From NCBI GenBank assembly GCA_046160365.1, contig JBJXGL010000207.1:1-60342 (forward strand): DNA of 60,342 nt, in the 5' to 3' direction. The notes beneath the pieces were generated by a model. It searched no databases. It saw only the letters and a program-made list of their open reading frames with translations, and had not been told where the DNA came from. The translations under genes and the position numbers were made by a program. This stretch comes from Aestuariivirga sp. GTDB taxonomy: Bacteria > Pseudomonadota > Alphaproteobacteria > Rhizobiales > Aestuariivirgaceae. Positions 1 to 7,586 of the stretch are shown one piece after another. Within the stretch, counting starts at the first letter, position 1. Each line of letters starts with the position of its first letter.

Positions 1-45
1 CTGAGAAAACAGACTGGATAGGGCGTTGGAAAACAACGAGTGCAT
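1..45 (-). CDS. 5' end of a gene running off the left edge (MHSLFSNALSSLFSQ...), product unknown
   Basis: ATG at 45-43 preceded on the minus strand by GGAAGGA (RBS-like); frame open to the window edge. Confidence 0.5.
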   Translation of the reverse strand, partial: MHSLFSNALSSLFSQ

Positions 46-134
46 GGCGTGATTCCTTCCTTGCAAGGGGTGGAATCTGTTTCATGAATCGTTTCAGCGC
101 CTTATCCAACTGCGTCGAGTACGCTGAGCGCGCG

Positions 135-163
135 TTGACAAAGTTCTTATTGTGTTCCATCTC
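135..163 (+). promoter_or_regulatory. Sigma70-type promoter with an embedded LexA (SOS) box
   Basis: Consensus -35 TTGACA at 135-140; GTTC-TTATTGT-GTTC at 143-157 matches the alphaproteobacterial LexA motif GTTC-N7-GTTC and fills the spacer; the -10 (CATCTC, 158-163) is degenerate. Confidence 0.75.
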
Positions 164-169
164 TCCCGC

Positions 170-530
170 CGCTCCCCTCCACTCGAGGGTCCTGCTCATG
201 ACGGTGAGCCTGGATGGTGGTGAGGGCAGGTCTGCGGTGGAAGGCGAACGTTGCCTCGAGCCCCGGACCCCTGGACTGCCCCCGGCGGGTTACTACGGAC
301 CCGTTCCCTATAGGTGGGCTCAAACCGGGATGGTGGGCTCACGCCGTAATCCCATAACCGGGGAGCTGACTGAGGCAGCCAGGGTGAACATCCTGCCGGC
401 GTGAGCGCTGCAAAGCGCACGTTCTCGCGACTTTAAACAAGAGTCGCACCCCGCGTTGAGCAGCGCTCACGCACCCCTCGTCTCCGGGGGCAAGAATGGG
501 AGGCCGAGGTCCGGACATACCGGTCCCACA
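170..530 (+). ncRNA. Candidate large structured non-coding RNA (~360 nt), family not recognised
   Basis: Nested complementary segments 182-188/254-260, 263-268/509-514, 269-280/374-384, 281-285/358-362, 287-293/346-352, 399-411/460-472 (13 bp perfect), 427-433/441-447; lies directly downstream of the promoter; overlapping ORFs are unconvincing; ends approximate. Confidence 0.65.
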
Positions 531-540
531 ATTCGATGAG

Positions 541-1659
541 TCATGCCCGCTGGAGAGCGCCGGTTTGAAACAGATAAACTCGCAATCCCCCATGCAACAC
601 CGGCGCTGATTGTTTGAAGGGAAGACCCGTCGCACGGGCAAGCGCCGCATCGCTGGTGATGATGCCGACGCGCCATCCGGCGAAGCGTTCGCGTAGTGTC
701 TGTCCCAATGCGGCATAGAGCGCGAATAGCGGCTTCTTCTCGCCGATGCGTGAACCATAAGGCGGATTGCAAATCACCAGGCCCGGAGGGCCATCGGGCG
801 GAGCGATGTCGCTCACGGATTTGCGTTCGAACACGGTGAAGCCCGCCACATCCGCGCGCTTCGCATTGGCCTCGGCAGCAGCGATAGAGCCTTGATCGCG
901 GTCGCTGCCGTGGAAAATGAAAGCGGGCGTGACGCGCGCGGGCGCAGCCTTCATGGCTGCCCACGCGTTTGCATCGAAGGTCGCCAGCTTCTCGAATGCG
1001 AATGAGCGATTGCGTCCGGGAGCCAGGCCCGCCGCGATCTCCGCCGCCTCGATCACGAAGGTGCCGGAACCGCACATCGGGTCGAGCACCGGCTCACTTC
1101 CGGTATATCCGCATTGGCGAAGAAACAGCGCCGCCATGGTCTCGCGCATCGGCGCCTTGGCCATGGCCTGCTTCGCTCCGCGCTTATGCAGCAATTCGCC
1201 TGAGGTATCGACGCTGAGCGTCAAAAGATCGCTCTCGACCCTCGCCTTGATGGCGATATCGGCATCAGCGCTGACGGGCGCGCCCAACTCCTCGCGGATC
1301 GCTGTTTCAATGCGCTGGGCGACAGCGCCGGAATGATAGAGCTTCGAGCGTTTGCACGAAGCCTCGACGCGCACCGGAACGCCTCGGCGCAGCACCTCGC
1401 CCCACGGAAAACTTCGTGCCCGCTTGTCAAGCTGCGCCAGGTGCGTAACCGGAAACTCGCCGATCCGCGCCAGGACCTGGCTCGCACCTCGCAGTTCCAG
1501 ATTGGCCCGCCAGACATCGCGCCATGTGCCCATGAACGCGACGCCTCCCGCCATCCGCCTTGCGTCCGTAAAACCCTTCGCCGCTGCTTCGTCGCGCAAA
1601 GCCTCCTCGAGGCCGGGCACCGCGACAAGGAAGACCTCAAATCGTTCGCCATCGGTCAT
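541..1659 (-). CDS. THUMP-domain class I SAM-dependent RNA methyltransferase (RlmL/YpsC-like, UPF0020)
   Basis: N-terminal PGLE motif, DTSGELLHKRG, APMRETMAA, DPMCGSGT and NPPYG motifs. Confidence 0.9.
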   Translation of the reverse strand: MTDGERFEVFLVAVPGLEEALRDEAAAKGFTDARRMAGGVAFMGTWRDVWRANLELRGASQVLARIGEFPVTHLAQLDKRARSFPWGEVLRRGVPVRVEASCKRSKLYHSGAVAQRIETAIREELGAPVSADADIAIKARVESDLLTLSVDTSGELLHKRGAKQAMAKAPMRETMAALFLRQCGYTGSEPVLDPMCGSGTFVIEAAEIAAGLAPGRNRSFAFEKLATFDANAWAAMKAAPARVTPAFIFHGSDRDQGSIAAAEANAKRADVAGFTVFERKSVSDIAPPDGPPGLVICNPPYGSRIGEKKPLFALYAALGQTLRERFAGWRVGIITSDAALARATGLPFKQSAPVLHGGLRVYLFQTGALQRA

Positions 1660-1753
1660 GCCTCTCCATAGAGCGAAATCAATTGGCCTGCGACGAGATT
1701 TCCCGGCCTCCCTTTTGGCGCAATCGGCCGTTCACATGCTAAGAGATAGTCCC

Positions 1754-3187
1754 ATGGATTCAACGCTCCCCACCGAGCCCAAACCTTTCGTTCCACCGGC
1801 GCCCATTCCCCGCAAGCGTGCGAGCATTCCGGGCTTTTTCGAAGTGGTGCGCACCATCATGCGCAATCCGCTGGAGCTCTGGGGCGAGCCTTCTTATGAA
1901 GACAGATGGATCGGCACCAAGTTCCTGAACGAGCGCTCGCTTATCGTCAACGATCCGGGCCTCATCCGTCATGTGCTGGTCGAGAATGCGTCGAACTACA
2001 AGATGGGCGTCATCCGGCAGCTGATCCTCAGGCCCATCCTGCGCGATGGCCTGCTGACAGCCGAAGGTGAAGTCTGGAAGCGTTCGCGCAAAGCCATGGC
2101 GCCGGTGTTCACGCCGCGCCAGGTGTTTGGCTTCGCCGAAACCATGTTGGCGTGCACCGAAGCTTATGCCACGCACTATGGCGAAGCGGCCCGCACTGGC
2201 GCCACGCGCGACATCGCGAGAGACATGACCGAGCTCACCTTCGACATCCTGTCGCAAACGCTGTTCTCGGGCGAGATCGTCACGGCGTCCGGCGACTTCG
2301 CCAGCGATGTCGAAAATCTGCTCCACACCATGGGGCGCGTCGATCCGTTCGATCTTATCAAGGCTCCGCCTTGGGTGCCGCGTCTCACGCGCATCGAGGG
2401 CGCCAAAGTGATGAAACTGTTTCGTGGCATTGTCGACGATACGATCGCAAAGCGAAAAGGGAAGATGACGAAGGGCGCCGATGTCCCCGACGATTTCCTG
2501 ACGTTGCTCTTGCGGCAGGAGCGCGCCGATGGCCTCAGCCGTGAGGAGATCAACGACAATATCATCACCTTTATCGGCGCTGGCCATGAGACGACGGCGC
2601 GCGCGTTGGGTTGGGCAATCTATTGTCTTGCCAACGCGCCCGCGGATTTGCACGAACTCGAGAACGAGATCGACGCATTCTTCGCTGGCGAAATCCCCGC
2701 GCCGCATCTTTGGCTCGACCGGCTGCCGAAAACCCGCGCGGCTTTCGAGGAAGCCATGCGGCTCTATCCGCCGGCCCCGTCCATCAACCGCGCGGCCATT
2801 GAGGACGACCGTTACGAAGACCTGGAGATCAAGGCGGGTACAACCATTCTGATGATGCCCTGGACGCTGCACCGGCACCGCAAGCTGTGGGACCGGCCCA
2901 CGGCGTTCATTCCCTCGCGTTTCTGGCCGGAGAATCGCGAGAACATCGACCGCTTCCAGTATCTGCCCTTCGGTGTCGGCCCGCGCGTTTGCATCGGCGC
3001 ATCCTTCGCGCTTCAGGAAGCGGTAATCGCACTCGCCATATTGCTGCATCGCTTCCGCTTCCATTGCACGCCCGCGTGCAAGCCGTGGCCAGTGCAGAAA
3101 CTCACGACACAGCCTGACGGTGGATTGCCGATGACGGTGACCCTGCGAAATGTCAGGGAATCGCCTTCCGCCGCTTCGCCTTCATGA
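1754..3187 (+). CDS. Cytochrome P450
   Basis: AGHETT I-helix, EAMR (ExxR), heme motif FGVGPRVCIG; start trimmed to MDSTLP because the longer ORF overlaps the divergent gene. Confidence 0.95.
   Translation: MDSTLPTEPKPFVPPAPIPRKRASIPGFFEVVRTIMRNPLELWGEPSYEDRWIGTKFLNERSLIVNDPGLIRHVLVENASNYKMGVIRQLILRPILRDGLLTAEGEVWKRSRKAMAPVFTPRQVFGFAETMLACTEAYATHYGEAARTGATRDIARDMTELTFDILSQTLFSGEIVTASGDFASDVENLLHTMGRVDPFDLIKAPPWVPRLTRIEGAKVMKLFRGIVDDTIAKRKGKMTKGADVPDDFLTLLLRQERADGLSREEINDNIITFIGAGHETTARALGWAIYCLANAPADLHELENEIDAFFAGEIPAPHLWLDRLPKTRAAFEEAMRLYPPAPSINRAAIEDDRYEDLEIKAGTTILMMPWTLHRHRKLWDRPTAFIPSRFWPENRENIDRFQYLPFGVGPRVCIGASFALQEAVIALAILLHRFRFHCTPACKPWPVQKLTTQPDGGLPMTVTLRNVRESPSAASPS

Positions 3188-7509: not shown

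Positions 7510-7586
<77 letters not shown>

Follow-up and report, generated by a model that had tools for sequence, protein, structure and literature searches.

The window, a 60,342-nucleotide stretch of Aestuariivirga sp. DNA, carries at 135..547 on the + strand a gene-less copy of a dispersed RNA element of Rhizobiales that live in soil and water, the full form of which leads into the gene of a small protein with four cysteines (Cys4). The window copy consists of a promoter-like site, a structured RNA and a leftover start codon. We favour, with slightly less than even confidence, the reading that this copy is a pseudoknotted and likely transcribed RNA, that the Cys4 protein pairs with its fold, and that the gene-less copies act in trans. 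A first-pass annotation had proposed a large, stand-alone structured RNA of no known family at 170-530. Strong covariation, a conserved promoter-like site and the lack of an Rfam match agreed with a new structured RNA; it is not a single gene, being one member of a multicopy family whose full form has a protein gene behind it.

The element is roughly 380 bases long. Its limits lie at 135 and about 547, beyond those first proposed, as judged by homology with the other copies in the genome, which runs from 135 to 545-549; the copies become alike at a TTGACA hexamer and diverge 1-4 nt past the ATG at 543-545. The genome holds a second full copy (contig C352, 91% identity), two 5' halves (C25 and C349) and three 3' halves (C145, C115 and C272), all five half copies being cut by contig ends; identities ranged from 87 to 95%. 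A further, diverged copy lies in C55, and the genome has at least six loci in total.

The TTGACA at 135..140 (+) was taken as the −35 hexamer of a predicted sigma-70-type promoter. A −35-like hexamer occurred at the same offset in 87 of 96 distinct copies; a strict consensus scan of the element, in which the consensus is that of E. coli, returned no promoter. Overlapping the promoter spacer at 143..157 (+) is a GTTC-N7-GTTC box, given as the alphaproteobacterial LexA box in the accessible part of PMC8565304. The lexA gene of the same genome bears the reverse complement of this box, and the other three close copies that retain their 5' end have the box as well; genome-wide, the motif is not enriched (144 observed vs 197 expected). 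With the box over its promoter, the window copy has this feature of the LexA regulon, and its regulation is predicted on that basis. Since the −35-like hexamer is found in 87 of 96 copies and the LexA box in 15 of 96, the promoter appears to be family-wide and SOS control, if real, to be limited to certain lineages. The transcript would start near 168-170.

At the 3' boundary, the leftover ATG (543..545, +) overlaps the stop codon of a convergent RlmL-like methyltransferase gene (541-1659, − strand; Pfam PF01170/PF22020), and the 24-codon frame after this ATG, when translated, is unrelated to the Cys4 family. The first-pass annotation had placed the RNA between a divergent and a convergent gene. 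The convergent gene is indeed there, but on the other side positions 1-126 belong to the end of another repeat, which is IS-like. This IS-like end was 100% identical at four contig ends (the window and C323, C9 and C184 of G000). In the window and in C184 it lies a few bases ahead of a GTTC-N7-GTTC box, which in C184 precedes a hypothetical gene, hinting that the IS-like sequence may prefer LexA-controlled promoters. The 3' tail of many copies (L001, L196, L368 and several from Tardiphaga) finishes with a short motif that contains GANTC, the CcrM target; the window has GAGTC at 538-542.

Folding of 170-530 against shuffled sequences, a check suggested by the first-pass annotation, gave z = −2.53 for the + strand (1 of 100 shuffles as good) and z = −1.49 for the − strand (8 of 100). 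Homologues were found, and their covariation, also suggested as a check, was pronounced. In an alignment of 30 diverse 5' halves, two-sided changes occurred in 30 of 36 pairs and 86.9% of cells were paired, against 38-55% in slid registers and with none of 500 shuffles reaching this level, while a model of P2, P3, P4, P5 and the long arm was paired in 95.5% of cells over 18 full-length rows (0 of 500 shuffles); these shuffle and slide controls ignore relatedness among the sequences. Many changes were from G-C to G-U, indicating an RNA rather than single-stranded DNA. Covariation showed the predicted fold to be compact, and the free length variation in the middle of the RNA and in its arm argued against a reading frame inside it.

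The predicted fold, read on the + strand throughout, begins with P1 (about 173-181/216-224, within 173..224), in which 7 of 8 pairs had two-sided changes among the 30 sequences. P1 encloses the hairpin P2 (190-198/205-214, loop TGACGG; 6 of 8 pairs). The first rows were chosen by a P2 pattern, so the invariance of P2 is overstated; later rows show varying P2. P3 pairs GGCAGG at 225..230 with CCTGCC at 392..397, the latter coming after an A-rich junction; 100% of its cells were paired and 2 of 6 pairs had two-sided changes. It is followed by the hairpin P4 (231..267), made up of 231-234/264-267 and 242-245/253-256 with a conserved ACG loop at 246-252 (11 of 14 pairs two-sided), and by the hairpin P5 (285..304), in which 285-290/299-304 closes an A-x-T-A-x-G loop (6 of 6 pairs). 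The loops of P4 and P5 may touch each other at 249-252/294-297, a tentative contact that was paired in 90% of cases with one two-sided change. A variable insertion region occupies 305..385, where the alignments showed homologues to differ by more than 100 nt in length. The long arm P7 (399..472) consists of 399-411/460-472, 415-418/453-456 and a cap at 427-433/441-447, with 96-100% pairing and two-sided changes. A small terminal hairpin (511..523), read from the sequence, varies between copies. Invariant nucleotides were concentrated in loops and junctions.

The segments quoted in the first-pass annotation are present in the window and are complementary, and its long arm survived in this fold: in the 18-sequence alignment, the perfect 13-bp helix 399-411/460-472 was paired in 94% of cells with 21 two-sided changes, and the capping hairpin 427-433/441-447 in 94% with 31. 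Most of its other stems gave way. Only 56-59% of cells were paired over the 18 sequences at 182-188/254-260, 269-280/374-384 (first 6 pairs), 281-285/358-362 and 287-293/346-352. The stems 263-268/509-514 and 389-397/489-498 lie partly outside the 18-row alignment; 264-267 was better supported with 231-234, and 392-397 with 225-230.

A putative pseudoknot joins the G-rich strand before P2 (CGAGGG, 184..189) to the C-rich strand after the long arm (CCCTCG, 475-480), which together with a downstream G-run at 486-490 forms the segment 475..490, as read from sequence and local fold. Over 22 distinct pairs, own partners beat swapped ones (8 of 2000 shuffles), and in most gene-bearing copies the pseudoknot has 7-10 bp, with matched changes between subgroups. 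Covariation gave the pseudoknot moderate support. Alternatively, the G-run could form a hairpin of at least 4 bp with the 3' strand of the pseudoknot, one that 16 of the 65 copies can make (41 of 2000 in the swap control); the automatic pairing behind this 65-copy comparison of pseudoknot and hairpin picks some wrong sites. The alternative pairing is suggestive only, in some subgroups including that of the window, and it was weak overall.

Searched against Rfam 15, the window gave no gathering-level match on the element, and positions 1-3000 gave only noise at E up to 10; the best match overlapping the element was NEAT1_1, with 24 bits vs 50. Likewise, 32 homologous loci, gene-bearing and gene-less, matched no Rfam family and showed no ribozyme similarity at E up to 10; the families covered include RNase P, tmRNA, SRP, 6S RNA, group I/II introns, HEARO, raiA, OLE, ROOL, GOLLD and the riboswitches. 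The sole gathering-level match in the whole window was a tRNA gene at 7510-7583 (+).

A pattern scan of public genomes returned at least 119 stretches; among those listed, 26 were confirmed by profile and the rest were chance. The 26 confirmed loci came from sequence records labelled Aestuariivirga, Hyphomicrobiales or unclassified Alphaproteobacteria/Proteobacteria, and two viral matches of the scan were chance on inspection. Model R2 detected the 5' domain in 15 of 20 genomes of the same genus, with 1-17 copies each, and in 1 of 80 other genomes of the family; weak R2 matches in a Tardiphaga robiniae genome (G416) were real homologues. Model R3, which includes four G416 homologues, found 14 strong copies in G416 and matched 16 of 141 genomes of the order (14 after removal of two false ones), in eight family groups. 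The R3 matches in G090 (L244) and G094 (L245) and the weakest ones in G416 and G417 were false on inspection and were excluded from the counts. Two further groups were reached through the Cys4 protein, so that the RNA occurs in ten or more family groups of the Rhizobiales. Among the 24 genomes examined from genus g39, 13 had 1-16 copies, and three near-complete ones had none.

The suggestion that the RNA is widespread in Alphaproteobacteria thus stood for the Rhizobiales but not for the class as a whole, since a low-sensitivity search of 145 class-wide genomes other than the window's own gave no match. One Bradyrhizobium genome and S. meliloti pSymA/pSymB gave none either; misses in these searches are weak because they score 21-150 candidates per genome. 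A supposed likeness to rhizobial intergenic regions held through Tardiphaga and other members of the order, but pSymB and a Bradyrhizobium genome, searched with a short motif that we take to come from a rhizobial repeat, gave only chance matches in coding regions. Phage, plasmid and viral collections had no match, and the 3'-arm model R1 had none outside the genus. BLASTN against 301 genomes of the order was too insensitive (three real carriers and one coding-region chance match), and a 10-nt pattern search was uninformative.

Many genomes have one RNA copy, sometimes two, followed by a ribosome-binding site and a Cys4 gene of 70-190 codons. In G002 (L248), for example, a diverged copy has GGAGG behind it and then a 123-aa frame that contains four cysteines. 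The core of the protein is C-x4-C-x-R-x3-C-x(6-14)-C, in which the four cysteines are invariant, and the protein likely binds zinc. A search of 1.84 billion representatives returned 62 relatives at E<=0.001. For 55 members Pfam gave no family apart from isolated chance rows, and NCBIfam gave none for 6. The structure model was confident (pLDDT 92); fold searches, in which the N-terminal domain was queried within the whole model, matched the C-terminal helix only (best Z 5.3), Foldseek found nothing at E<=0.001, and the best score in the ESM Atlas, 0.79, was uninformative. A homologue search with the Tardiphaga Cys4 protein returned nothing, the query having unchecked coordinates that are possibly out of frame.

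The Cys4 gene occurred in 42 of 151 genomes of the family; 37 of these have it once and 5 have it twice. The RNA was directly upstream on the same strand at 6 of 6 metagenome Cys4 loci (4 distinct) and at 28 of 31 and 14 of 16 genome loci (42 of 47 together). Among the five that miss it, four lie near contig ends, one of these showing the 3' part of the RNA, and one keeps the 3' part only. Linkage with diverged Cys4 genes was found in G416 (1 of 14 copies, L220), G084 (L296, group f5), G619 (1 of 11 copies) and G061 (1 of 16 copies), and further in groups f37 (L434, L442), f15 (L444-447), f45 (L453) and f6 (L459). These results indicated a tight linkage of RNA and gene in at least seven Rhizobiales groups, and an asymmetry of 1-2 Cys4 genes vs up to 17 RNAs per genome. 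One locus (L443) has a Cys4-like gene without the RNA upstream.

Searches for a Cys4 gene found none in the genome of the window (413 contigs, 96% complete) or in the RNA-positive G101 and G258 (100% complete; only 30 candidates scored in each). In G210 none of the 7 copies led into a Cys4 frame, and in G607 the same was true of 10 of the 14 examined. In this genus, gene-bearing and gene-less RNAs are distinct P2 subtypes. Weak Cys4 matches were mostly chance frames, with the RNA upstream in 0 of 9 and in 5 of 23 by the model plus 2 by eye. A long Cys4 subtype (L293, L284, L297, L299, L303) has a conserved aromatic C-terminal motif and often ends beside a tRNA gene, which Rfam confirmed for L293. 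A Tardiphaga copy, L324, is followed by a Shine-Dalgarno sequence and a frame whose cysteine pattern is degenerate; this may be a Cys4 gene in decay.

Gene-less copies usually end at a Shine-Dalgarno-like run and a start codon, as though the gene had been severed where it begins. Gene-bearing and gene-less copies were most alike within one genome (98.7% in G416, 93% in G084, 79% in G061); in G013 they have an 88% module in common, and five copies in G385 are nearly identical though some of their sites are common to other species. These results showed that copies are homogenised within genomes, that is, by concerted evolution. Orthologous sites were filled, empty, or reduced to promoter and tail. 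The phaC site was filled in two genomes and empty in three; the mutL-racemase site was filled in two, a relic in one and empty in three; and the window's site was empty in all four relatives that have the methyltransferase gene. Copies have been gained and lost at orthologous sites. As the promoter precedes the predicted start of the transcript and yet accompanies every copy, DNA-level duplication with gene conversion is most likely, and plain retrotransposition of the transcript would be unlikely. One relic (L368, G385, about 1330-1420, − strand reading) keeps promoter and 3' tail and has lost the RNA body, and L150 and L183 have internal deletions between short repeats. Palindromic REP-like elements, of which there are dozens per genome, often abut or interrupt the RNA (e.g. 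L015, L028, L161, L167).

Neighbours of 82 model matches were unrelated, did not recur and faced either way, and by inspection the co-directional downstream genes (lepA, guaB, cysE-like, phaC-like) had no common pathway. Some sites, such as that upstream of lepA, persist between species. A scan of 30 neighbouring proteins found one reverse transcriptase, at one locus only, and two IS1595 proteins, with no recurring transposase, integrase or reverse transcriptase. Upstream genes (at L161, L163, L018, L172, L011, L210, L182, L058, L196, L208 and L248) were often accessory or defence-like, among them HNH, reverse transcriptase, DUF4062, DUF3800, CoiA, GmrSD, AAA ATPase, HigB, IS1595 and DUF2971; the promoter side may therefore be an insertion hotspot. 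A 6S RNA gene (L199, 2330-2489) lies directly downstream of one G381 copy.

In one metatranscriptome run, a single contig of depth 2 lay on 184-334, with no coverage of the flanks, a weak hint of transcription, as a contig of depth 2 could be DNA. The available reads showed no processing signature. Runs X18 and X20, RNA by guess only, were left out of the expression evidence.

One copy usually lies directly before the Cys4 gene, suggesting that RNA and protein work as a pair. In our favoured reading, transcription would start from the upstream promoter and would be induced by SOS in the lineages with a LexA box, the window's included. The full-form RNA would be both leader and ligand of the Cys4 protein, which is predicted to bind the RNA fold. 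The full (master) copy would control translation of its own Cys4 gene, and the gene-less copies would supply additional ligand in trans, titrating the protein or giving it a scaffold. The C-rich strand of the pseudoknot (CCCCUCC-like in gene-bearing copies) is complementary to the Shine-Dalgarno sequence, and might act as a translation switch, being sequestered in the pseudoknot in one state and masking the ribosome-binding site in the other. Zinc binding, protein-RNA binding, the translation switch and any catalysis are steps that we infer. A bolder reading, which we consider unlikely, is a new kind of RNA-centred Rhizobiales system in which the ribozyme-sized RNA is itself the active part, through catalysis, self-propagation or assembly. 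One tiny zinc protein behind a single master copy would be the sole cofactor dedicated to it, and 5-17 promoter-carrying gene-less copies would be kept alike by gene conversion, with SOS wiring in some lineages. The RNA as a catalyst is a candidate idea.

Several observations would also suit a selfish, non-autonomous mobile element, a promoter-RNA unit moved by some enzyme, with the fold needed for movement and Cys4 an accessory or passenger of the parent element. Its copies are all-or-many among genomes, as in g39, and they fill orthologous sites that are empty elsewhere (phaC, mutL-racemase and the window's own), as dispersed MITEs and non-autonomous IS elements do; their neighbours vary, with downstream genes in either orientation, and those upstream are often accessory genes. 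We regard this account as the closest rival and yet as rather improbable. The copies have no transposase, integrase or reverse transcriptase as a recurrent neighbour, the sole linked protein has 70-190 aa and no enzyme match, sites such as that upstream of lepA persist across species, and the phage, plasmid and viral collections lack the element. By eye, no terminal inverted repeats or target-site duplication were apparent, the empty sites compared being those of other species. Nor does a cognate reverse transcriptase stand beside the RNA as in retrons and group II introns, the only one among the 30 neighbours being at one locus.

The pseudoknot closes the RNA just ahead of the Shine-Dalgarno sequence and start codon, the 3' strand of this pseudoknot resembles an anti-Shine-Dalgarno sequence, and the invariant nucleotides lie in loops and junctions, all of which could belong to a cis-acting, riboswitch-like leader whose core binds a metabolite or ion, whose pseudoknot switches ribosome access, and whose duplicated cassettes are kept where they drive the downstream gene. 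However, roughly half of the gene-less copies face a convergent gene, as in the window, the co-directional genes have no common pathway, position 5' of one pathway being true only of gene-bearing copies, and an RNA of 300-550 nt is large for an aptamer; such a leader is improbable indeed. We give least credence to a catalytic or self-assembling RNA (a ribozyme or an RNA cage) with Cys4 as a folding cofactor like a maturase or the RNase P protein. The size, nested long-range helices, end-to-end pseudoknot and possible loop-loop contact resemble those of ornate RNAs, the ACGT loop of P4 is nearly palindromic and might help multimers to form, and the G-rich tracts that some subgroups have in matching form at either end could be substrate repeats, but no ribozyme in Rfam was similar at E up to 10, the P4 loop of gene-bearing copies is not palindromic, and no processing signature was visible in the available reads.

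Large structured bacterial RNAs are rare, and most are without an experimental handle. This one offers a tightly linked uncharacterised microprotein, genomes that naturally carry the RNA both with and without the gene, a pseudoknot defined well enough for mutagenesis, a LexA box that predicts an inducing condition, cultured carriers and an RNA suited to cryo-EM. It would be a new regulatory or RNP system of the one-protein/many-RNA type or else a mobile element without an enzyme gene nearby, and both would surprise specialists in RNA and in mobile elements. The RNA and the Cys4 protein fall outside every catalogued family in the libraries searched, and we rate them as new, though the element may be in print as an unnamed rhizobial repeat. 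A literature search, with most subscription papers outside its scope, found no description of the RNA, and the accessible part of PMC11109978 has no Rhizobiales text. Like RIME, Sm-1 to Sm-5, Rhizobiales-1/-2 and CIR, the element is a dispersed intergenic repeat of Rhizobiales, often beside palindromic REP-like elements. The Rhizobiales-1/-2 and Methylobacterium-1 alignments are about 60-115 nt (PMC2864571, supplement) and do not resemble the element. Large S. meliloti repeats are named Sm-1 to Sm-5 in PMC2245857; the element may equal one of them, the S. meliloti search having covered pSymA/pSymB without a match.

The raiA motif, OLE, ROOL and GOLLD are large ornate RNAs, and OLE binds protein partners (bioRxiv 10.1101/2024.12.08.627333, accessible part). 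According to the same source, they are, like our RNA, large, multi-helix, pseudoknotted, found by covariation and largely unsettled in function. Unlike them, the RNA described here has no Rfam match, occurs in a different phylum, is present in 1-17 homogenised copies and has a fixed downstream microprotein gene.

HEARO has ORF-less stand-alone copies. Our element resembles HEARO/OMEGA in combining a structured RNA 5' of an ORF with ORF-less copies. HEARO has 343 nt and a structure with IsrB (bioRxiv 10.1101/2024.12.08.627333), and in the accessible part of that source the HEARO/OMEGA arrangement (omega-RNA with IscB or IsrB) is likewise a structured RNA of about 340 nt 5' of its partner ORF, with which it forms an RNP. 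Unlike HEARO/OMEGA, our RNA has no Rfam match and its partner is a 70-190-aa Cys4 protein without HNH or RuvC; the adjacent nuclease ORF (IscB, IsrB or TnpB), a guide segment and IS200/605 ends were not identified.

SOS type I toxin leaders such as tisB have a LexA-boxed promoter, a long structured leader and a small protein gene 3', a layout that our element shares. The Cys4 protein is a soluble-looking domain with helices, in contrast to their short hydrophobic peptide, and the LexA box of our element is not family-wide. In CsrA/RsmA with CsrB/RsmXYZ, and in CcaF1 with CcsR, one small RNA-binding protein is titrated by several paralogous RNAs. The Cys4 protein matched neither the CsrA/RsmA nor the CcaF1 family in Pfam and NCBIfam searches, and the RNAs of those systems are short repeated hairpins that do not lead into the gene of the protein they titrate, unlike the 380-nt tertiary fold proposed here.
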